DNA from: an uncultured Chloroflexia bacterium
GTDB taxonomy: Bacteria; Chloroflexota; Anaerolineae; CG2-30-64-16
DNA: 64,000 bases
Assembly: GCA_963774265.1 (NCBI GenBank)
Contig: CAVZDU010000001.1
Location: 1,376,001 to 1,440,000 of the forward strand
Direction of reading: 5' to 3'
Shown here: positions 39,042 to 57,654 of the stretch, one piece after another
Layout: the number at the start of each line of letters is the position of its first letter
Position numbering within the stretch: the first letter of the stretch is position 1
Made by a program: the position numbers and the translations under genes
The notes under the pieces: generated by a model
Database searches by the model: none
The model's input: the letters and a program-made list of their open reading frames with translations, nothing else
What the model was told of the DNA's origin: nothing

Positions 39042-41509
39042 TCATACGCGCTCCAGCACGTTCCGCAACGCCATCCACTGCGCGTCGCTCACCCGATCCA
39101 TTTCGCCAGCTAACTGCTGCGAGCGCTGCGGCTCCTGCACGAGATCCGGCATGGCCTCATTCAGAACCAGCTTCGCCCACGAATCGAGCTTGAATGCCCG
39201 CAGCATGGCACGGCAGGTCTCCAGGCGCCGATCACGCTTGGAAAGCAGGGAACCATCCGCCACGCCGAGCGCCAGCGTCAGTTCGTCGGCCGGACCAACC
39301 GGCAGGCTCGGCAATTGCAATGATTCGGTAGCCTCGTCGTAGGTCCACTCGACCGTCAGGCCGGCTCCGTTGATCGCCACGTTAACCTGATCCGGCTTAC
39401 GGACGCCCCGGAACATCAGCCGATAGGCGCGTCCAGCCGGGATGAGGCGGCCGGCCACCCTTTGGTGGCGCGATGCCGCCGCGTTGCCCTCAACCTTGTT
39501 GATCTTGAAGGTCAACTGTGAGTCCCCCCAGGTCTGTGCCAGACGTGTGATCGCATAGTCGCCATCCAGGTATGCGGTTGAGGCGCCGTCGTCCTCGTAG
39601 AGCGCGAACGCGCCATCCGCGCCGGGGAAGACGACCACCGTCAATTCGGCAGGGTTGTCGATGCCGCCCCAGCCGACTTGCGGCCCCAGCGGCACGATGC
39701 CGCCGGCCCGGGCGAGCACGGGGATGTCATCGAGCGTGCCGTATAGTGTCACCGTGCGACCGCCGGTGAAGTGCTCGCCCGTGGTGAAGTCGAACCAATC
39801 TCCATGCGGCAGCCAGACCGATTGTCGGCTCAGGTTGGTATCTTCGTGGCGCGGGGTCACGAAGGGCGCGACCAGAAGCTCACTGCCGAACCAGAACTGG
39901 GTGCGGCAGTGATACGCCTCTCTCCGCTCCGGCTCCCAGTAATAGAGTGGCGTCACCAGGGGGATGCTTTCTTGCGCCATGCGCCACGCCATGGTGTAGA
40001 GGTACGGGATCAAGGCGTGGCGCAACCGCATCGCGTTGCGCGTGACGCGGAATACATCATCGCCGTGGCCCCACGGCCGGCGATCGAGAAATGGGTTACT
40101 GGTGCTGTGCAGGCGCAGGATCGGGCTAAAGACGCCGAGCTGCACCCAGCGCGCGTATAGCTCGGGCTCCTCGATGCCGCCCATGTGGCCGCCGATGTCG
40201 TGGCTCCACCAGCCGAACGCGACGTTCGAGGCCGTGGCAGTGAAATAGGGCTGAAACGCCAGGGAAGCCCACGTCACGCAGGTGTCGCCGGAGAAGCCGA
40301 TGGGGTAGCGGTGGCTGCCAAGTCCACCCCAGCGCGAGAAGATGAAGGGACGCCGGGCGCCGTCACGGCCAAGGTCATAGAAGTGCAGGTGGTTGAGCCA
40401 CCACAGCGGGTCCATGACCTCGGCCACCGGCTGCTTGGAGTAGACCATGCGCTGGCCCTGCTGCCAGTCAAGCCACCAGAAATCGACCCCCTGTGCTTCC
40501 ATCGGATGGTGCAAGATCTTGAAGTAGCCTTCGACAAAGTGCGGATCAGCCGCGTCAAAGCGCACCGGTTGGCCGCTCGACGGGTCTTGGTCCATCCAGC
40601 GCGCCATCGCCTCGTACTGCTCCTCGTGCGGCCAGATGCCGTCGGCCGGATGCAGGTTCAGTGCGGTGCGCAAACCCTGGCTCGTGCAGCCAGGCCAGGA
40701 ACCCCTCCGGGTCAGGCCACTGCTGGCGATTCCAGGTGTAGCCGGTCCAGCCGCGAGATACGTTGCCCGTCTTGGTGATGTGCCAGTCCATGTCGATAAT
40801 GCACACCGACAGGGGCACCTGCTTCTCCCGGAACTCGACCATCAGATCACGCAACTCGTCCTGGCGATAGTTCCAGAAGCGACTCCACCAGTTGCCCAAC
40901 ACGTAGCGCGGCACCATGGGCACGCGGCCGCTGACTCTCGTGAAGTCTTGCAGACAGCCGATGTAGTCGTGGCCGTGGCCGAAGAAATACAGATCCTGGT
41001 ACTCGGAAACACGAGCCGGGGGCCGTTCTTCCAGCCAGCCAATCCTGATTGAAAACCAGGCTGGCTGAGTCATCCACCAGAGACCATCCCGCGCGAGACA
41101 TCAGGCCCGGCTCCAGCGGTATTTCGCCATCAGCCTTATCGAGCGTCCGCGCGGTGCCCCGTAGGTTACGGCGATCGCGGTCACCCAAGCGCCAGGTCAC
41201 GCCCAGTTCCTTCACCAAGACGGAGAGGGTCTCGGCGGTGAAGCCTGCCTCAGTGACCCGGTAGCGGAGCAGCAGGTGCTCAGTCTCGATTTCGATCCCG
41301 TCCGATGCTTGTGTGGACCTGAATGGTGGTATGGGCTGGCGGCGATACCAGAACGCCTGACTAGCGCGATCTTCGAAGGCGTTGCTTTGGCTGTACTCCA
41401 TGCGGATCAAACGCGAGGTCAACACCGTGAAGCGGACTTCCGGTCCGGTTACGAAAGCGGCCGGATCGGCCTGTGATGGAAATGAAGCGGGGATCGTGAT
41501 GGCCGTCAT
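39042..41509 (-). CDS. GH31 alpha-glucosidase-family protein, apparent frameshifts ~41045 and ~40675
   Basis: LGNWWSR, IDMDWH, DFWWLDWQQG, GFSGD, WSHDIGG, LRLH, LYEDDG; split over three ORFs. Confidence 0.9.
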
Positions 41510-49363: not shown

Positions 49364-50178
49364 CAGAGCTCGTCTTTCTGAAACTGGGCGGCTCCCTCCT
49401 CACGGACAAGACCCAGCCGCAGTCGCTCCGCGGGGACGTCCTTCGCCGCCTGGCAGGGGAGATCGCCGGCGCGCGGCTTGCTCGTCCGGACCTCAGATTG
49501 CTCTTGGGGCATGGCAGCGGCTCCTTCGGCCATGTTGGCGCCAAGCGCTACGGCACGCGTGAAGGTGTGCGGACTGCCGAGCAATGGCGCGGCTATGCTG
49601 AGACCGGCCGGCTGGCGTCGGAGCTGAATCGGCTGGTTGTTGATGCGCTATGGGATGCGGACATACCTGCACTGCGCGTGCAACCTTCCGCATCCGCCCT
49701 CTGTCATGATGGGGAACTACGTTCCCTGGCAGAACGTCCTTTAGTCGCCGGCATGGAACACGGTCTCGTTCCGGTGATCCACGGTGATGTCGCGCTCGAT
49801 GAAGTCCGTGGCGGGACGATCATTTCGACGGAAGAGATCTTTGCTTTCCTGGCTCCCAGGCTGTGGCCTGCGCGCGTTATCCTGGTGGGCGAGGTTGAGG
49901 GGGTCTTGACAGTGGATCCGGCCACGGCGATTGATGGTGAAGTGATCCGAAGCATCTCGCGCGTCTCGTTGTCCGCGCTGAGCCCTGCGCTCGGAGGTTC
50001 GCGCGGCGTCGATGTGACTGGCGGCATGATGACGAAGGTCCGGGAGATGTTGGACCTCGTCGAGAGCACTTCTGGCCTGAGTGCTGTTCACATCGTGTCC
50101 GGTTTGATCCCTGGGCTGTTGTGCGATGTGCTAAAGCATCCTGACGTGCCGGCAGGCACTCGGATCGTGGCCGGGTGA
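49360..50178 (+). CDS. Isopentenyl phosphate kinase (amino-acid-kinase fold)
   Basis: LKLGGSLLTDK, IPK signature HGSGSFGH, PVIHGDV, ISTE, DVTGGM. Confidence 0.87.
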   Translation: MTELVFLKLGGSLLTDKTQPQSLRGDVLRRLAGEIAGARLARPDLRLLLGHGSGSFGHVGAKRYGTREGVRTAEQWRGYAETGRLASELNRLVVDALWDADIPALRVQPSASALCHDGELRSLAERPLVAGMEHGLVPVIHGDVALDEVRGGTIISTEEIFAFLAPRLWPARVILVGEVEGVLTVDPATAIDGEVIRSISRVSLSALSPALGGSRGVDVTGGMMTKVREMLDLVESTSGLSAVHIVSGLIPGLLCDVLKHPDVPAGTRIVAG

Positions 50179-50197
50179 AACCGTCCATACGGAAGCA

Positions 50198-50220
50198 TTC
50201 CTGCTGACGCAGGACCTTTT
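50198..50220 (+). terminator. Possible terminator after the IPK gene
   Basis: TCCTGC-tgac-GCAGGA-CCTTTT. Confidence 0.5.
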
Positions 50221-50303
50221 GCGAGTTATCATAAGAGTGAATATAATGAATATCCGCGTGTCGACCGAGAGACGTAGACATCGTGGGTAAGTGAGAGGTT
50301 TGA

Positions 50304-51401
50304 ATGTTGCTGACGGTTCTTTCGTTCATCCTGGTGATGGGCGTGGTAGTCTTTATACATGAACTCGGCCACCTGATTGCCGCCAAGCGCAATGGCATCA
50401 TCGTGGAGGAGTTCGGGTTGGGATATCCGCCGCGTTTGGTGAAGCTTTTCGAGCGGGGCGGCACAGTATATTCCATCAATGCGATTCCCTTCGGCGGCTT
50501 CGCACGCATGCGCGGGGAAGATGATCCGACCGAGCCCGGCAGCTTTGCTGCGGCATCTCGCTGGGCCCGTTTCGTTACTCTCTCTGCCGGTCCGGTCATG
50601 AATTTCTTGCTGGCCATTGTCCTCTTCGCCAGTATGAGTATGGTGCAGGGAATGCCGGATGCGAGCAAGCCGGGGGCCGTCGTCAATGCTCTTGTTTCGG
50701 GCGCGCCGGCCGAGCAGGCTGGCATGCTCATTAATGACCGTATCATTGCGGCGGATGGGCAGCCCGTAGTCAGTTTTGCTGACCTGCAGAGTTATACGTC
50801 GGCGCATTTGGGCCAACCCATTAAGTACACATTGGTCCGTTTGGATGAAACGACGGGTGCGGTGCAGAGGCTGGATATAACAGTCACGCCTCGTGCTAAT
50901 CCCCCGGAAAATGAGGGCGCACTGGGCATTCAGATTGGTTCGTTCATGCGGCCGACGCGTATCTGGGAAGCGGCTTGGACTGGCGTGCGCAGTGTGGGTG
51001 AGATCATTTACATGACCTTCGCAATTCCTGCCAACCTCATTCGTGAAGGACGGCCCATCGATGAGGCTGGTTTCATGGGGCCGGTGGGCATTGCGGCAAC
51101 CACGGGGCAATTCGTGCGCTACGGGTTGAGCACCGAATCGATCCAGCCCATTCTGTATCTCATCGCGGTGATTAGCGCTGCCCTGGGTCTCACCAACTTG
51201 TTGCCGATTCCGGCACTGGATGGCGGCCGTCTGCTCTTCCTGGCGGTTGAGACGATTCGCGGCCGGCGCATCGAACCAGCGCGTGAGGGCATGGTGCATC
51301 TGATCGGTTTCGGGCTGCTCTTGTTGCTGGTTGGGCTTCTTACCGTGCGGGAAGTCAGTTGGTTAATCAACGGCACGTTCCCCACAATAGGCTTGCCGTA
51401 A
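50304..51401 (+). CDS. rseP: Site-2 intramembrane metalloprotease with PDZ domain (M50)
   Basis: HELGH, IPFGGF, AGPVMN, PDZ region, NLLPIPALDGG. Confidence 0.93.
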   Translation: MLLTVLSFILVMGVVVFIHELGHLIAAKRNGIIVEEFGLGYPPRLVKLFERGGTVYSINAIPFGGFARMRGEDDPTEPGSFAAASRWARFVTLSAGPVMNFLLAIVLFASMSMVQGMPDASKPGAVVNALVSGAPAEQAGMLINDRIIAADGQPVVSFADLQSYTSAHLGQPIKYTLVRLDETTGAVQRLDITVTPRANPPENEGALGIQIGSFMRPTRIWEAAWTGVRSVGEIIYMTFAIPANLIREGRPIDEAGFMGPVGIAATTGQFVRYGLSTESIQPILYLIAVISAALGLTNLLPIPALDGGRLLFLAVETIRGRRIEPAREGMVHLIGFGLLLLLVGLLTVREVSWLINGTFPTIGLP

Positions 51402-51406
51402 CCCAG

Positions 51407-51430
51407 GCCACCACGCCCATGCGTGGTGGC
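51407..51430. other. Perfect 10-bp stem-loop after rseP
   Basis: GCCACCACGC-ccat-GCGTGGTGGC. Confidence 0.7.
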
Positions 51431-51491
51431 TACTTCGTTCCATAGGGACGGTTCCCTGTCCCAAAGGGATGGTTCCCAAAGGACAAGTTGT

Positions 51492-52742
51492 ATGTACTGT
51501 AGACGCTGCGGGGCGCCCCTACACCAGGGTGTGGTCATTTGCCCCGAATGCGGGGCCCGGCAGCGCCGCGGGCTAAGCGCTGTACGTTGTGCGCGCTGTG
51601 GTGACCGCGTGCCCCTCGGTTTGACTGTCTGCCCTCATTGCGGAAGAGATGTTCATGCCGCCGGTCCGCGGTGGGGCCTTTGGATCGCGGGGTTTGCCGT
51701 GGTGGCCCTGGCAGTGCTATGGGGATTCGGTAAACTGCCAATGGAAAGCATCCTCGACGAGATTGCGTCAGTTCGTACACGCGTCGAAGGTGTTGTGCGG
51801 GTTCTCGGCCCTGTTGCGTCCGACTTGACCGAGTCTCAGAGGGATGGCACCCAAACCCCAAGGGACGGTTCCCAGTCGGGCGCGGCTACAACAACGCCCC
51901 AAGTTATTGCAGAGTTGGATAATACGCCGCCAGCTGCCTCGATTGACCTCCCCGGGCCAGAATCGACGGAAAAGATTCCTGAAACTTCGACGCCGCTACC
52001 AAATCCCGAAGGGATGGTTACCAATTCCACCACCGAACCGACGGTGATGCCAACCCCAACACCAACGGATACTTCCACGCCGGAGCCCACGGCCACTGCG
52101 ACGGCCGTGCCGACGGAGACCGCGACCGCAGCCCCAACACAGGCGCCTGCAGCCACAGGACGAACGACCTATAAGGTGAAGTCAGGAGACACGTTGTCGG
52201 GTATTGCGGCGCAATTTGGGATCGCCTGGCAGGATCTCGCCGCTGCCAATAACCTCACAAGCCGGTCAACCTTGGGTGTAGGGCAAGAGTTAGTTGTTCC
52301 GGTAGGAGGGAGTGGGGCCCCAGCGCCTCCCACAGCTACGACCGCGCCCAGAGCTGCCCAGACAATCATGCCGTCCAGCCCGACGCCGGTGCAGTTGCTG
52401 TCCGCGCCCCAGTTGCTGAGCCCCGCGGATCAAACGCCATACTCGGGCGCGAACGCGGATTTGGAACTGGTCTGGTCGCCCGTCGCGGGGATTCCCTTTG
52501 GCGCCCAGTACCAGGTCTCAATTCGATGGATGGAGCAGGGCTCACCGATGGAGTATTCCGAACTCTACACAACTGCGACGAGCATCCGAATGCCGGAGTG
52601 GCTGTTTGCTAAGGCCGATCAGCCCGCGCGGCAGTACTCCTGGTCGGTGCGGGTAGTGCAGACGACGACTGACGGGCAGGGCGGACAGAAGGACATTTTG
52701 CTCAGTCCTTCCAGTGCGACCCAGGTGCTCTATTGGAACTAA
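51492..52742 (+). CDS. Double zinc ribbon - TM - T/P linker - LysM domain protein
   Basis: CRRC/CPEC/CARC/CPHC, one TM, LysM YKVKSGDTLSGIAAQFG...GQELVVP, C-terminal Ig-like region. Confidence 0.88.
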   Translation: MYCRRCGAPLHQGVVICPECGARQRRGLSAVRCARCGDRVPLGLTVCPHCGRDVHAAGPRWGLWIAGFAVVALAVLWGFGKLPMESILDEIASVRTRVEGVVRVLGPVASDLTESQRDGTQTPRDGSQSGAATTTPQVIAELDNTPPAASIDLPGPESTEKIPETSTPLPNPEGMVTNSTTEPTVMPTPTPTDTSTPEPTATATAVPTETATAAPTQAPAATGRTTYKVKSGDTLSGIAAQFGIAWQDLAAANNLTSRSTLGVGQELVVPVGGSGAPAPPTATTAPRAAQTIMPSSPTPVQLLSAPQLLSPADQTPYSGANADLELVWSPVAGIPFGAQYQVSIRWMEQGSPMEYSELYTTATSIRMPEWLFAKADQPARQYSWSVRVVQTTTDGQGGQKDILLSPSSATQVLYWN

Positions 52743-52790
52743 GGCCAGCAAGTCCCAACGGGATGGTTCCCAAAGACAACTGTGCTAAGT

Positions 52791-53969
52791 ATGACACAAG
52801 AATTTGACAGCGTATTGGTGAGACTGGCCGACGGAAGTCGGCCAGTCCGTTCGATTAATATATCCCCCCTGTCTGACCTGGCGCGCGAGCGGCTGTCCGA
52901 CTTTGAGGCGACGTGGCATGCTTTGAGCGCGTCCCGACGCCTCGAATTGATCAGAGAAATGGTCGAGCAGGCGGAAACCAACATTCATTTCAACTTTCAC
53001 GCCATCTTGCGTACGCTATTGCATGATCCCGAACCCGAAGTTCGAAAACTGGCTGTTGAAGGCCTGTGGGAAGATGAGAAGACCAATCTCATCTCGCCCT
53101 TAGCGGGTTTGTTGCTCGACGACCCGGCGGTTGAGGTGCGTGCCGCGGCTGCGATCTCTCTCGGCCGGTATATCCTGCTCGGCGTCTTGGGGGATATCAG
53201 AGAAGAGCCAGCACTGTCAGCCGAGCGGGCTTTGCTTCAGGCCTGGTCGCGCATTGGGGAGGTCCATGATGTCCGCCGGCGCGCGCTTGAGAGCCTGGCA
53301 TATGGCAGCACATCGGACCTGAATGAGATGATCCGGAACGCCTACTACGATGAGGACGCCGCTTTGCGCCAGAGCGCGGTGTTCGCGATGGGTCGCACCG
53401 CCGATGCTCGCTGGTCAAGGCTCGTGCTTGAGGAACTGCACAGCTATGAGCCAGCCATGCGCTTCGAGGCCGCCCAGGCCGCGGGGGAGATGGGCCTCAA
53501 GGCTGCGGTGCAGCCATTGATCAAGTGTGTGGACGATCCAGATGCCAATGTGCGACAGGCGTCTGTTGCCGCGCTTGGCAGAATCGGCGGCCCCGCGGTT
53601 AAGCGTGCGCTCCAGGCCCTCCGTCACCTTGAGGACGAGGCCCTGGTGCAGGCTGCGGAAGACGCCTTGGATGAACTCAACTTCGGCAGCGACACAGCGG
53701 CTGATCCCATAGGGACGGTTCCCAACACCCTGCTAGATTTTGCGATAGGTAGCTCAGTCAAGGAAGCCATCTCTGACGATCTGGATGACCTTGATGACCT
53801 CAAAGATCTCGACCACGACTGGGAATCATCTCTGGGAGATGATGTTCATGATGAAGACGATTTTGGTTTCGAGGACGGCTTGGAGGTCGGTAATGATGAT
53901 GACCTGGATTGGGATGATGCGGACGGGGACGAATATGCCGATGTTGGTGACGACGAGGATGAATTCTAG
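52791..53969 (+). CDS. HEAT/PBS-lyase repeat protein with a long acidic tail
   Basis: Repeats LxDPxxEVRxxAxxxLG; Asp/Glu-rich C-terminal ~70 aa. Confidence 0.87.
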   Translation: MTQEFDSVLVRLADGSRPVRSINISPLSDLARERLSDFEATWHALSASRRLELIREMVEQAETNIHFNFHAILRTLLHDPEPEVRKLAVEGLWEDEKTNLISPLAGLLLDDPAVEVRAAAAISLGRYILLGVLGDIREEPALSAERALLQAWSRIGEVHDVRRRALESLAYGSTSDLNEMIRNAYYDEDAALRQSAVFAMGRTADARWSRLVLEELHSYEPAMRFEAAQAAGEMGLKAAVQPLIKCVDDPDANVRQASVAALGRIGGPAVKRALQALRHLEDEALVQAAEDALDELNFGSDTAADPIGTVPNTLLDFAIGSSVKEAISDDLDDLDDLKDLDHDWESSLGDDVHDEDDFGFEDGLEVGNDDDLDWDDADGDEYADVGDDEDEF

Positions 53970-54511
53970 ATGATGAGCAGCCGGTCTCAATCCTACGATC
54001 GAAAGTCCTCTGCACCAGGCGATGGGGAACAAGACGATCGTGTCAATCGACTGGTAGAAGAAGGCGCGCGCCTGCTGTCACTGCGCCGTCCGGGAGAAGC
54101 ACTGGCACCGCTCCTTCAAGCCCAAGAACTGGACCCGAACAATGTCGGGGTCGCCATCAACATAGGCAGCGCGTATATCTTGCAGGGCAAGCACAAGCAA
54201 GCTATCCCGATACTCGAAAAGGCATCTCGGTTGGAGCCGTCCAATTCGATGGTCTGGATCAATCTGGCGGCTGCCTACCTGGGAAAGCTGCCCTTCTCGA
54301 CACTCGATATGCAGAACCAGGCCATCGAGGCGTTTGAGCAAGCGCTCGCCCTTGATGTGCGCGCGCCCACGTGAACTATAATCTGGGGTTGATTTACCTG
54401 GAACGTAAAGATGTAGAACAGGCCGCCTTGCATTTCTATGCAGCCATCGAGAATGATCCCAATGATCGCGATGCCCAGATGTGGCTCGACAAAATCCGGC
54501 ACGCTTTGTAG
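53970..54511 (+). CDS. TPR protein, apparent frameshift ~54368
   Basis: TPR motifs; continuation VNYNLGLIYLER...AIENDPNDRDAQMWL* ends at 54511. Confidence 0.82.
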
Positions 54512-54595
54512 GGAGGGGATGAGCGTCGCCCCTGCAGGCCCCGGCACACTGAATACCAGGACAGGCTCTGACCTATCCCAAAGGGACGGTTCCCA

Positions 54596-55840
54596 GTGAA
54601 CTGGCGTCAAAATCCTACGCGCGTTGCCTGGTTGATCTTGTTGATCAGCTTTTTTGCGTGTGTCCTGCTTGCGGTCGCGGTGCCGGTGGGAGTGCGCGCC
54701 GTGCTCTTGCACGCCAGTCGGAGCAAGTTCGCGTTTCTTCAAGCCACGCAGGGGACTGCGCAGCTGTGGGCGCCAAACTCGGGTGATGCATCCGCCGTGA
54801 TTGATCGCCGGCCTATTTCGGAAGGCAGTCGCATTGTAACAGACAATGCAACCAAGGCCGTCCTGACGCTCTCCGTCGATGAAACGGGTCAACTTGTATT
54901 AGCCACGGTCCAGCTCTCGCCGAACACGACGGTTCAGCTCGATGAGGCACGGAGTCCGCGCTTCAACGTCAGCCAGGATCCTCACCGGGCGCAGTTTGGC
55001 TTTACCGGCGGACGATTGTTCTTGACCCTGCAGCAGGCCGACCAGCGCGACGTTCAGATTCGTCTTGTGACGCCCAATGCGACTGTTGACCTGACTTCCG
55101 GCGTATTCGATGTGACGGCGGACGAAACTGAGACGCGCGTCCGTGTTCGCTCGGGTACCGCGCGCGTACAGAGCGCGGGTCGTGTCGCGGAAGTTAACGC
55201 GGGTGAACGCGTCAACGTTCTGGCGGGTCGCGCCCCGGAGTTCCCCGTCTCCGACACAGTGAACCTGATCGTCAACGGCAGCTTTGTGCAGCAACTTGCG
55301 CCGCTCTGGCAGGAATTTGCCGAAGTGAAGCCCGGCCAGCGACCGGGTGTTGTGGAACTCATCCAGGACGACCGTCCCACAGGGATGGTTCCCAACCGTA
55401 ACGCTGTCCGGTTCAGCCGGCGCACGGAGGAGGATATTCCGAACCGGGTTGGCCTGGTCCAGGCGGTCAATCGTGACGTTGAGAAGTACGATGATTTGGC
55501 ACTGCGCTTTGACCTCAAAGTGCTGTATCAGAGCGTGCCCGGCGGAGGTGAAAAGGGCACCGAGTACCCGGTGATGGCGGATCTGTTCTACACCGACATC
55601 TATGGGAAGGACCTGCACTGGTACGTAGGATTTTATAATCTGGAGTTGCCGCCGGGCAGTCCCTACCCAACACCATCCGGCGAGCGTGTTCCCCTTGGGG
55701 TCTGGTACACTTACGAGTCGCCTAACTTGTTCGAACTGCTCGAAGAGACGCGGCCCGCGCGTATCAACAGCCTGACCATCTATGCCAATGGTCACGACTA
55801 TGAGAGCCTCGTCTCCGATGTTGCGCTGACGGTCCAATAG
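54596..55840 (+). CDS. FecR-like domain membrane protein with a C-terminal carbohydrate-binding-like beta-sandwich; true start may be ATG 54519
   Basis: N-terminal TM; IVTD...QLSPNTTV, TPNATV and TRVRVRSG resemble the FecR pattern; NLIVNGSF. Confidence 0.7.
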   Translation: MNWRQNPTRVAWLILLISFFACVLLAVAVPVGVRAVLLHASRSKFAFLQATQGTAQLWAPNSGDASAVIDRRPISEGSRIVTDNATKAVLTLSVDETGQLVLATVQLSPNTTVQLDEARSPRFNVSQDPHRAQFGFTGGRLFLTLQQADQRDVQIRLVTPNATVDLTSGVFDVTADETETRVRVRSGTARVQSAGRVAEVNAGERVNVLAGRAPEFPVSDTVNLIVNGSFVQQLAPLWQEFAEVKPGQRPGVVELIQDDRPTGMVPNRNAVRFSRRTEEDIPNRVGLVQAVNRDVEKYDDLALRFDLKVLYQSVPGGGEKGTEYPVMADLFYTDIYGKDLHWYVGFYNLELPPGSPYPTPSGERVPLGVWYTYESPNLFELLEETRPARINSLTIYANGHDYESLVSDVALTVQ

Positions 55841-55878
55841 CGGGTCTAGCTCGAGCGAACCCCCCGTGTGGGACAAGG

Positions 55879-57654
55879 ATGCCTTTGAGTCTCGCGTCGT
55901 CTATTCTACCTGTTGAGTCATCAGCCACGACCAATCCGGACACTGTTCGGCGCGCCCTTTCTGTCCTGCCCCTGGTTGTGGCCCTGGTCGTGTTTGCTGC
56001 CCTTGCGGCATACCACCTCGATCTGCCCGGCCTGCACTACGACGAAGCCAAAGAGGCCGGCGTCAACGCCATGCAACTCCTGACCGGCCGACCGGTGACC
56101 GCGTTCCGCGATGCAACCGTGACGATGGGGCCGTGGCGTATCCCCCTGATGGTTCAGGATTACATCGGCAACCTTAACGTGCTCATGGTCCTGCCGTTTC
56201 TCGCTGCAGGTGGCTTCACGCCGGTTGCACTGCGGGCCTTGCCCCTTGTCTTGGCCATGCTCACCCTGGTATTCGCCTGGAAGCTCGCTGCTCGTTTGGG
56301 CGGACCGCTGGCAGCCGGTGTCACAGCGTTGCTTCTTGCGGTCAATCCGTCTTTCGTCTTCTGGAGCCGTCAAGGTATTTTCGTCACTAACATTACGATT
56401 CTCTTCTTTATGGCCGCCCTTTGGTTTGGGCTCATCTGGTGGCAGGAACGCCGCGCGCTCGACCTGATCGTAGCCGCCTTTATGTGCGGCCTGGGCGTCT
56501 ACGCCAAATTGCTCTTCGTGTGGGCCCTGTTCGCGATGGTTGGGGTGGCTCTTTTCGCCCTCCTTTTGGGCGCGTGGCGGCGCCGTTTTACAGAGGCGCT
56601 CACCTCGTGGCCGACCGTTCCGCACCTCGGGGTGGTGCTCCTCGCGGCAGGGGCGTTTGTCGTTCCGCTGCTCCCGCTCATCGCGTTCAACCTGCAGACC
56701 AGCGGCACCCTGACATCCATCTTCGGCAATCTCGGCCGGTCTTATTATGGAGTGGACAACAGTGCATACGGCGCCAACCTGGGCGTCCGACTGGGACAGA
56801 TCACGACTCTGCTCCGGGGGAGTCAATTCTGGTACCTGGGGGAGACGTATGCCAATCAATGGGCGCCGTGGCTGTTGATCTCATTGGTGGTGTTGGCTCT
56901 CATAACCTGGCTCCTCACACCGCGACGTGGGCCTTTTTGGCCCCTCTTGCCCCTGGCGCTGCTAGCTCTCATCGGGTTGCAGAGCGCGTTCACAGTCAGC
57001 GACCTGTTTATCACCCATTTTGCACTGGTTGTACCTCTGATCCCATTGACGGCCGGCCTAGCTGTCAGCATCTTGTGGCCACGTGCACCCGGCCAGCCTC
57101 ATCCCACCGGACTGAAGGAAGAAGGAACAAGGAAGAAGGAAAATTGTCCTTCTTTCTTCTGTCGTCCAGCCATGATAGCGGTCGGTGTGCTGGGCGTTCT
57201 GCTAGCACTGGCTTGGGCTGGGACTGACGCCACCACGACCATTCGCTACCATCGGATACTGACTATTTCGGGCGGTTACGCAGCTCATTCCGATGCGATT
57301 TATGATCTTGCGGATTACCTGGACAAAGAGAATTTCACCTCACCCGTTGCCTTGGATTGGGGTATTGACGCGCCAGTCCAATTCCTTACGGCGGGGCGGG
57401 TCAATCCCGTCGATGTCTTCGGTTATACGCGCATCGATGCACCGGACCCAGGCTTTGCGGATCGGGTCGAACCGTATCTGGAGGATTGGCAGACGATTTA
57501 TGTAGCGCACTCTCCCGAGAACGTGGTTTTCAAGGGGCGTCTGGAAGCCATTGCCGAGTGGGCTGCTGAGCGAGGCTGGCGCTGGTTCGAGCAGATACGC
57601 TTCGGCCAGCGCAGCGGCGACCCGGTGTACATTGTTTACCGGTTTCTTGAATAG
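55879..57654 (+). CDS. GT39/ArnT-like (GT-C) membrane glycosyltransferase
   Basis: PGLHYDEA, ALRAL, LLAVNP, GLGVYAK; polytopic. Confidence 0.82.
   Translation: MPLSLASSILPVESSATTNPDTVRRALSVLPLVVALVVFAALAAYHLDLPGLHYDEAKEAGVNAMQLLTGRPVTAFRDATVTMGPWRIPLMVQDYIGNLNVLMVLPFLAAGGFTPVALRALPLVLAMLTLVFAWKLAARLGGPLAAGVTALLLAVNPSFVFWSRQGIFVTNITILFFMAALWFGLIWWQERRALDLIVAAFMCGLGVYAKLLFVWALFAMVGVALFALLLGAWRRRFTEALTSWPTVPHLGVVLLAAGAFVVPLLPLIAFNLQTSGTLTSIFGNLGRSYYGVDNSAYGANLGVRLGQITTLLRGSQFWYLGETYANQWAPWLLISLVVLALITWLLTPRRGPFWPLLPLALLALIGLQSAFTVSDLFITHFALVVPLIPLTAGLAVSILWPRAPGQPHPTGLKEEGTRKKENCPSFFCRPAMIAVGVLGVLLALAWAGTDATTTIRYHRILTISGGYAAHSDAIYDLADYLDKENFTSPVALDWGIDAPVQFLTAGRVNPVDVFGYTRIDAPDPGFADRVEPYLEDWQTIYVAHSPENVVFKGRLEAIAEWAAERGWRWFEQIRFGQRSGDPVYIVYRFLE
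57114..57167. repeat. Heptamer tandem/inverted repeat (GAAGGAA x4 / TYCTTCT x2-3) within the GT39 CDS
   Basis: gaaggaa gaaggaa caaggaa gaaggaa aattg tccttct ttcttct gtcgtcc. Confidence 0.8.

Follow-up and report, generated by a model that had tools for sequence, protein, structure and literature searches.

Nine copies of a short repeat lie within about 4 kb of a 64-kb stretch of DNA (the window, G000:C1:1376001-1440000; positions given without a contig name are window positions) from a soil Chloroflexota genome that we call G000. We conclude, with a probability of roughly 0.75, that these nine are members of a very small, non-autonomous mobile repeat family with a 21-bp unit and about 46 copies. 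Each insertion adds the whole unit and leaves no target-site duplication, and the unit lacks terminal inverted repeats. It inserts on either strand and both between and inside genes, it has multiplied in the species of G000 only, and its new copies are often tandem to an older one or close to it and equally oriented. An earlier note on this DNA had proposed either a mini-element that hops locally and gives proteins extra peptides or a clustered polar binding site. The first proposal agrees with what follows: precise differences of 21 bp (seven amino acids), a species-limited expansion, clustering, and unrelated host genes. The second found little support, other than the invariance of the 20-mer inside a small RNA (sRNA)-like element of other genera (below).

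The copies in the window were located by searching both of its strands with the 20-mer TCCCANAGGGAYGGTTCCCA at up to three mismatches. This gave exactly nine copies, all on the + strand and all within 51438-55394 (0, 0, 0, 0, 1, 2, 2, 2 and 3 mismatches), where 0.04 would be expected; nine were reached in 0 of 100 shuffles, and the rest of the window contains no further match at that threshold. The 12-mer core GGGAYGGTTCCC, at up to one mismatch, recovers eight of the nine, and its one extra match is a chance-level half-site at 39248 on the - strand. The list of copies in the earlier note and their common strand were thus reproduced, and the re-measured spacing of the two tandem pairs (51438/51459 and 51834/51855) is exactly 21 bp, as it had said. 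Its statement that copies stand just upstream of the LysM, HEAT and FecR starts holds as well: the 20-mer at 51459-51478 ends 13 nt ahead of ATG 51492 (zinc-ribbon/LysM gene), that at 52753-52772 ends 18 nt ahead of ATG 52791 (HEAT gene), and that at 54576-54595 directly abuts GTG 54596 (FecR-domain gene, 0 nt). Five copies are inside coding sequences, as the translations confirm, and are read there in two frames (SQRDGTQ-TPRDGSQ, PEGMVT, PIGTVP and PTGMVP).

G000 is an incomplete metagenome-assembled genome (MAG) of 5.5 Mb in 10 contigs (62.5% GC, 84% complete). Scanning all of it gave 8, 9, 12, 17 and 28 copies at 0, 1, 2, 3 and 4 mismatches, against 0, 0, 0, 0 and 19 for the reversed pattern; five shuffled patterns gave 0-8 matches at up to three mismatches. 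There are 29 copies at up to two mismatches (16 forward and 13 reverse; control 0) and about 46 at up to three, the limit used below, and nine of these (20%) are in the 4-kb run. The motif is therefore confined to that run, as had been claimed, only within the 64-kb window; genome-wide there are 37 further copies, on both strands, and the family is spread over eight contigs. The consensus of the 21-bp unit is TCCCANAGGGAYGGTTCCCAR. A sequence logo of the 46 copies with 10 nt of flank on each side shows purines both at position 21 and ahead of the unit, and a T and then C or G after it, with no other conservation in the flanks. The unit is therefore not the core of a longer repeat, and we rejected the idea that one is hidden around the 20-mer in G000; when G000 was searched by BLAST with the long element of its relatives (below), the match was limited to a core of about 25 bp.

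Insertion of the unit is seen most directly by comparison with orthologues, which covers about 20 of the 46 sites. DNA matching the gene run was found in all seven congeners, and six of them, in which the genes have the same order, were aligned (G003, in small contigs, was left out). In the FecR-domain protein, G000 reads IQDDR-PTGMVPN-RNAVRF where all six congeners have QDDR-RNAVRF (QDEG-RNAVRF in G001), and at the DNA level the gap at this site (copy 9) is exactly 21 bp. The PMT_2 glycosyltransferase gene at C1:439928-442477 contains two more exact insertions of 21 bp and seven amino acids, LGIIPVG and GLGTIPV, in which the repeat is antisense to the gene; both are absent in the three congeners examined (G002, G004 and G005), G001 and G007 being left out because they gave only partial or paralogous matches. 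At C1:1290566, G000 is 21 bp longer than G004, G007 and G001, within a variable loop. At copies 3 and 4 of the window, G002 has one degenerate unit of seven amino acids where G000 has two, which again leaves a gap of 21 bp. The borders of the insertions are ambiguous by one base, and no target-site duplication was found at the five clean insertion junctions; models with a duplicated TCC, CAG or CCG were tried and did not fit the orthologue sequences.

The insertions of six to seven amino acids that had been predicted at the in-frame window copies were therefore found in the FecR-domain protein and for one unit of the 51834/51855 pair, but not at copy 5, where the alignment to G002 is gapless (11 of 20 bases identical), nor at copy 7 in the HEAT protein, which lies in a region so variable among orthologues that an insertion is not distinguishable there. 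Copy 7, C5:529527, C5:529853 and C1:1111167 could not be polarised by orthologue alignment, and the gene that holds C1:913826 and C1:914080 has no orthologue in the five congeners searched.

Copy 8 lies at the start of the FecR-domain gene. Five of the six congeners read ATGAACTGG or ATGAATTGG here (G007 has an ATG one codon further upstream), and G000 reads A, then the 21-mer ending in G, then TGAACTGG. With this A ahead of the unit and that reading in the congeners, copy 8 appears to have landed between the A and the TG of the old start codon, although the alignment upstream of it is weak, and its last base would have restored the start as GTG.

Other copies seem to be older. The copy at C1:1447598 is present in both G000 and G002, with a shared derived base (GGTCCCCA), and is absent in G001, G007 and G004. 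At C1:1446904, C1:1111377 and window positions 51459, 52004 and 52753, G002 has sequence of the same length in which 11-14 of 20-22 bases match. Thus G002 has a 12/20 look-alike at the place of copy 2, of equal length, which suggests that copy 2 predates the split from G002, and another 12/20 look-alike, of the same length and in the same place, at copy 6. Several copies are by these alignments older than that split; the shared sites being degraded in G002, the family would therefore predate the species, have decayed in the sister lineage, and have stayed or become active in G000.

The distribution of the copies within G000 is far from random: 25 of the 46 are in seven clusters, and 18 neighbouring pairs are no more than 10 kb apart, where 3.6 are expected and none of 2000 random placements gave more than 10. 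In 15 of the 18 close pairs the two copies have the same orientation. Besides the two in-phase 21-bp tandem pairs of the window there is a third, at C2:154602/154623. Such in-phase pairs, and such strong local clustering with a common orientation, are what replication slippage, template switching or short-patch gene conversion off nearby copies could produce with no enzyme at all, and the failure to find either a target duplication or an associated transposase suits that explanation too. We nevertheless think it rather improbable, since 21 of the 46 copies are singletons far from any other, the 21-mer also occurs in other genera inside a different element, and the insertion junctions examined share no microhomology. 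We also considered a replication strand bias. On contig C1 the cumulative GC skew has its turning point near 450 kb; a hand count puts the copies of about 10 of 15 clusters on the G-rich strand, not a significant excess, and this candidate was dropped.

The genes that host or adjoin the copies have unrelated housekeeping functions. They include PMT_2, neighbours of gamma-glutamyltranspeptidase, YqeC/MobA, a PriA-like helicase, an ABC ATPase with a cNMP domain, a response regulator-cyclase-HD protein, a MalT-like regulator, MeaB and a B12-binding mutase subunit, and copies are also found in the NusA-IF2 spacer and in RecA-like and ImpB-family genes. A crude coding-potential test placed 15 of the 46 copies inside a frame open on both sides (six sense, nine antisense) and the rest at gene borders or between genes; this test missed four known in-gene copies, namely 441207 and the three in the LysM linker. 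The three in-gene window copies that give the similar peptides PEGMVT, PIGTVP and PTGMVP could by themselves suggest selection at the protein level for a recurring peptide motif. The results refute this, and it retains next to no probability: at least five combinations of frame and strand are used, about half of the copies are outside coding sequence, and the peptides are missing from the orthologues. Conservation is thus at the nucleotide level, as had been stated. An assembly artefact is refuted in the same measure, since six of the nine window copies are present in contigs of other sequencing runs, as follows.

Four public soil-metagenome runs from two studies contain small shares of the stretch, in contigs mostly 95-99% identical to it; the runs may share a sampling campaign with the source of the assembly and are hence not fully independent. 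RNA runs were not among the public runs listed as containing the stretch. Copies 3, 4, 5, 8 and 9 are covered gapless (copy 4 by record 1 and copy 9 by record 8 of run X1) and copy 6 (52753) with a 1-nt deletion. For the 51438/51459 tandem pair the only matching contig comes from another locus, and one contig, of run X1, has 28 other bases in place of 51417-51487, the region of this upstream pair, a hint that units are polymorphic among strains. Three or more tandem units of the 21-mer are present in a contig of run X3 (record 15) that belongs to a different locus, so longer tandem arrays exist in related strains.

The expansion is specific to the species of G000 among everything searched. When 40 relatives were scanned at up to two mismatches, the seven congeners gave a single match in total (in G002), other genera of the family gave 0-4 matches, and 16 other families of the class gave none; at up to three mismatches G002 has 5, against 4 for its control, and G001, G004, G005 and G007 have 0. 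Scanned for exact matches, a set of 185,579 genomes, one per species, yielded 11 stretches with no more than one match per contig, which we estimate to be about the chance level (three of the 11 are titled as Chloroflexota or Chloroflexi MAGs), and a metagenome collection gave 16 contigs with one match each; the records of G000 itself may be excluded from both scans. A full-text literature search for GGGATGGTTCCC returned only one paper, an unrelated one on mouse. The left half of the 21-mer is also found in a sister motif, TCCCA[CA]AGGGATGCTTCGCA, which occurs at G000:C6:251479-251498, L035:2002 and L036:2005, recurs in four other genera (G009, G014, G015 and G017), and sometimes stands between GCGAAG and CTTCGC arms.

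Where the exact 20-mer does occur in other genera of the family, it sits in a conserved context of about 170 nt that resembles an sRNA gene: a promoter-like TTGCnn-N17-TAtAAT, a first hairpin, a second stem TCCTG/CAGGA, a third stem with a variable insert, and then an intrinsic terminator. A covariance model (R1) built from the core of this element found it in 17 of 37 genomes of the family, with up to 13 copies per genome. The element ranges from about 93 to 116 nt with three stems, and most R1 copies are about 93 nt long and lack the 20-mer. Several copies are upstream of helicase genes that we take to be of a defence type. Rfam has no match to the element; six related loci gave no credible match, with three sub-threshold chance matches only, and window positions 50000-57000 gave none at E up to 1. 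G000 has a single weak R1 match (C1:1214965-1215059, 31.6 bits), without the 20-mer. In G015 (genus g9), two near-identical copies of the element differ by exactly TCCCAAAGGGATGGTTCCCAA, in the loop of the second stem, and so show an independent clean 21-bp insertion in another genus.

Several observations weigh against a mobile repeat, and two of them would suit a function of the sequence itself. First, old sites are near consensus in G000 and decayed in G002, which could mean selection for function, although the contrast is partly a bias from the choice of copies. Second, the 20-mer is invariant in eight diverged composite copies of the sRNA-like element while their flanks vary (in a ninth, in G010, it is degenerate and partly deleted); we cannot account for this invariance by simple neutral descent, and it points to some sequence-specific function in that element. 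Both would fit a cis-acting site that is bound by a small RNA or by a protein with affinity for DNA or RNA, with the nine window copies as a regulatory array of the M50-LysM-HEAT-TPR-FecR-PMT_2 envelope run, and so would the position of three copies 0-18 nt ahead of the start codons of consecutive genes and the sense orientation of all nine. We hold such an array to be unlikely for the following reasons. The gene run is kept in six aligned congeners without the motif; the copies elsewhere, in sense and antisense, belong to housekeeping genes with no common function and often lie far inside coding sequence; new copies come as exact 21-bp insertions in conserved protein sequence; and the distance to the start codons varies (0, 13 and 18 nt).

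The remaining points on this side concern structure, target and mover. The unit folds preferentially into the hairpin GGGA-YGGT-TCCC (-2.9 kcal/mol as DNA, -6.1 as RNA), one of two alternative 4-bp stems; 35 of the 46 copies keep stem A intact and 33 keep stem B. The two palindromes with mostly kept stems described in the earlier note are thus present, but the hairpin has 4 bp only and no compensatory change is seen among the 46 copies, so that covariation neither supports nor refutes the structure. The unit is free of stop codons in all six frames, except in one frame when N = T, but so are 35% of random 21-mers of equal GC. The co-orientation of neighbours rests largely on the window; without it the close pairs are seven same and three opposite. 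No target motif was found beyond the purine and the T and C/G mentioned above. Three junctions looked palindromic by eye, and palindromic or hairpin-loop target sites were rejected over all 46 copies, at which flank stems average 2.04 against 1.95 at random sites (2.48 against 2.49 in a wider search).

As for a mover, no mobilising gene was found linked to the repeat in G000. The RAYT (REP-associated tyrosine transposase; REP, repetitive extragenic palindromic) or other HUH nuclease, or reverse transcriptase, flanked by the motif that had been anticipated was looked for and not found, and such a link was rejected: none of the three Y1_Tnp genes of G000 (C7:428276-428614, C1:1281552-1281893 and C5:45865-46035) is flanked by the motif or within about 700 bp of a copy, and no RVT_1 match was obtained in G000, which at 84% completeness is no proof of absence. 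Y1_Tnp also does not track the repeat, G004 and G005 having three each and no copies, and G002 none. One Y1_Tnp (RAYT-like) gene, in the region G000:C5:45536-46730, lies between inverted copies of a GTAG-starting 25-mer (GTAGGGGCGAGTGTGGCGCCGGCGA), the classical REP/RAYT arrangement, and is unrelated to the 21-mer.

A candidate mover would be a trans-acting enzyme, e.g. an HUH/Y1-type transposase, that recognises the small GGGA-YGGT-TCCC hairpin in single-stranded DNA; replication-coupled template switching would be an alternative to an enzyme. Copies inside genes would be tolerated as loops or linkers of seven amino acids, e.g. PxG(M/T)VP, SQRDGSQ, LGTIPVG and WEPSLWD, and would survive there since 21 is divisible by three and the frames of the unit are almost free of stop codons. 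It is also conceivable, but very improbable, that the 21-mer is written from a master copy by a templated process and not by a classical transposase. The multicopy sRNA-like element of related genera, with its promoter and terminator, would supply this master in the form of the invariant 21-mer in its loop, and an intermediate, either RNA or single-stranded, would serve as the template at breaks or replication forks. Templated writing would explain the exact length, the lack of target duplication, the in-phase tandems and the lack of a flanking transposase.

Table 1. Copies of the 21-bp unit, genes of the window that hold or follow them, and loci of the sRNA-like element.
Feature	Position	Strand	Description
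Copy 1	51438..51458	+	2 mismatches; intergenic, 3' of M50 peptidase stop and a hairpin; first unit of tandem pair
Copy 2	51459..51479	+	0 mismatches; second tandem unit; 12 nt before ATG 51492
Zinc-ribbon + LysM membrane protein	51492..52742	+	Pfam LysM 2.2e-15, Zn_Ribbon_1/DZR
Copy 3	51834..51854	+	3 mismatches; in coding sequence; read SQRDGTQ
Copy 4	51855..51875	+	2 mismatches; in coding sequence, tandem to copy 3; read TPRDGSQ
Copy 5	52004..52024	+	2 mismatches; in coding sequence, other frame than copies 3 and 4; read PEGMVTN
Copy 6	52753..52773	+	1 mismatch; intergenic; 17 nt before ATG 52791 of HEAT gene
HEAT-repeat protein, acidic tail	52791..53969	+	Pfam HEAT_2 4e-27
Copy 7	53705..53725	+	0 mismatches; in coding sequence; read PIGTVPN
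TPR gene	53970..54511	+	Pfam TPR families; broken by 1-nt gap near 54365 relative to G002
Copy 8	54576..54596	+	0 mismatches; last base G is first base of GTG start 54596
FecR-domain membrane protein	54596..55840	+	Pfam FecR 2.5e-6; holds copy 9
Copy 9	55375..55395	+	0 mismatches; in coding sequence; clean 21-bp insertion read PTGMVPN
sRNA-like element	L124:1501-1615, L140:1501-1616, L125:1501-1620 and other loci		

The features are listed in Table 1, where distances are counted from the 21-bp unit. Pfam identifies the products of the gene run (crude gene calls were used) as an M50 peptidase, a zinc-ribbon and LysM protein, HEAT, TPR and FecR-domain proteins, and a PMT_2 glycosyltransferase. 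Copy 1 is within a stretch of about 50 bp that the closest congener, G002, lacks; a GC-rich hairpin at 51405-51431 (GCCACCACGC...GCGTGGTGGC), between the M50 peptidase gene and the first tandem pair, which it closely precedes, belongs to the same missing stretch. Orthologues of the zinc-ribbon/LysM protein begin at MYCRRCG, and copies 3-5 are in its low-complexity linker; copy 7 is at the junction between the HEAT repeats and the acidic tail. The gap in the TPR gene (54360-54370) reads GCGCG-CCCAC in G000 and GCGCGCCCCAC in G002 and is either a pseudogene mutation or an assembly error; none of the public metagenome contigs examined spans it. Two other repeats were seen at locus L003. A palindromic repeat of about 49 bp (GGTGCCCGGCAC...GTGTCGGGCACC) at L003:1294-1342 (G000:C1:~1290359-1290407) has dozens of near-identical copies in G002 and G004, and the other repeat, AT-rich and 27 bp long, at L003:2702-2728, has many copies in G004 and G005.

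These results bear on how the smallest bacterial repeats, such as dispersed repeats of about 20 bp and the CGTC-type REPs, spread. They provide a clean comparative case, with about 46 near-consensus copies in one species, only decayed relics in a sister species and none in the further congeners searched, and precise 21-bp junctions can be seen in conserved proteins, in the sRNA-like element of another genus and, probably, in a start codon. To judge from the alignments, they would also be an example of loops of seven amino acids added to envelope proteins without breaking them.

How does the 21-bp repeat compare with known systems? Miniature inverted-repeat transposable elements (MITEs) are non-autonomous, multicopy and lineage-expanded, and have terminal inverted repeats and a target-site duplication. 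The 21-bp repeat is likewise non-autonomous, multicopy and expanded in a particular lineage, but it is several-fold smaller and lacks both of these features; the TCCCA...TCCCA at its ends is a direct, not an inverted, repeat. Closer in size are the small dispersed repeats (SDRs) of heterocyst-forming cyanobacteria, of which Elhai and colleagues reportedly described eight families of 21-27 nt in 2008. As far as their description goes, both are dispersed units of about 20-27 nt that also occur in tandem (here 21 bp, 46 copies and three in-phase pairs), neither has a known mobilising enzyme, and mobility is seen in both by orthologue comparison (here as clean 21-bp presence or absence at three G000 sites and one in g9); the hosts differ, being Chloroflexota in the one case and cyanobacteria in the other. 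By size and behaviour the 21-bp repeat appears to match this description of the SDRs.

The excerpts of PMC3733652 and PMC3116915 that bear on REP families describe 20-100 units in many species, some of them intragenic in linkers or loops, and according to those of PMC3733652 the CGTC-type REPs lack a dedicated transposase and REP stems are 5-13 bp long (its Table 1). To that extent the REPs and the hairpins they form as doublets (REPINs) resemble the 21-bp repeat in being short, hairpin-forming and dispersed, with a similar family size and some intragenic copies (PMC3733652; PMC3116915). The 21-bp unit differs from what these excerpts describe as follows: its stem is 4 bp, not 5-13 bp; it has no unpaired GTAG or CGTC tag (the logo of the 46 copies with their 10-nt flanks has neither at either end, and CGTC occurs only in the reverse-strand loop when Y = C); it forms no head-to-head dimers, its tandems being direct; and no RAYT is flanked by it. 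The Rickettsia palindromic elements, in the part of PMC10969869 that treats them, are about 100-150 bp long and each encode a conserved peptide. Like the repeat studied here they insert in frame into unrelated genes, add a peptide and keep the reading frame (PMC10969869); by the same partial account they differ from it, since the unit here is 21 bp, is read in several frames and on both strands, and gives different peptides. Small in-frame repeats are thus already known, and the 21-bp unit is among the smallest of them.

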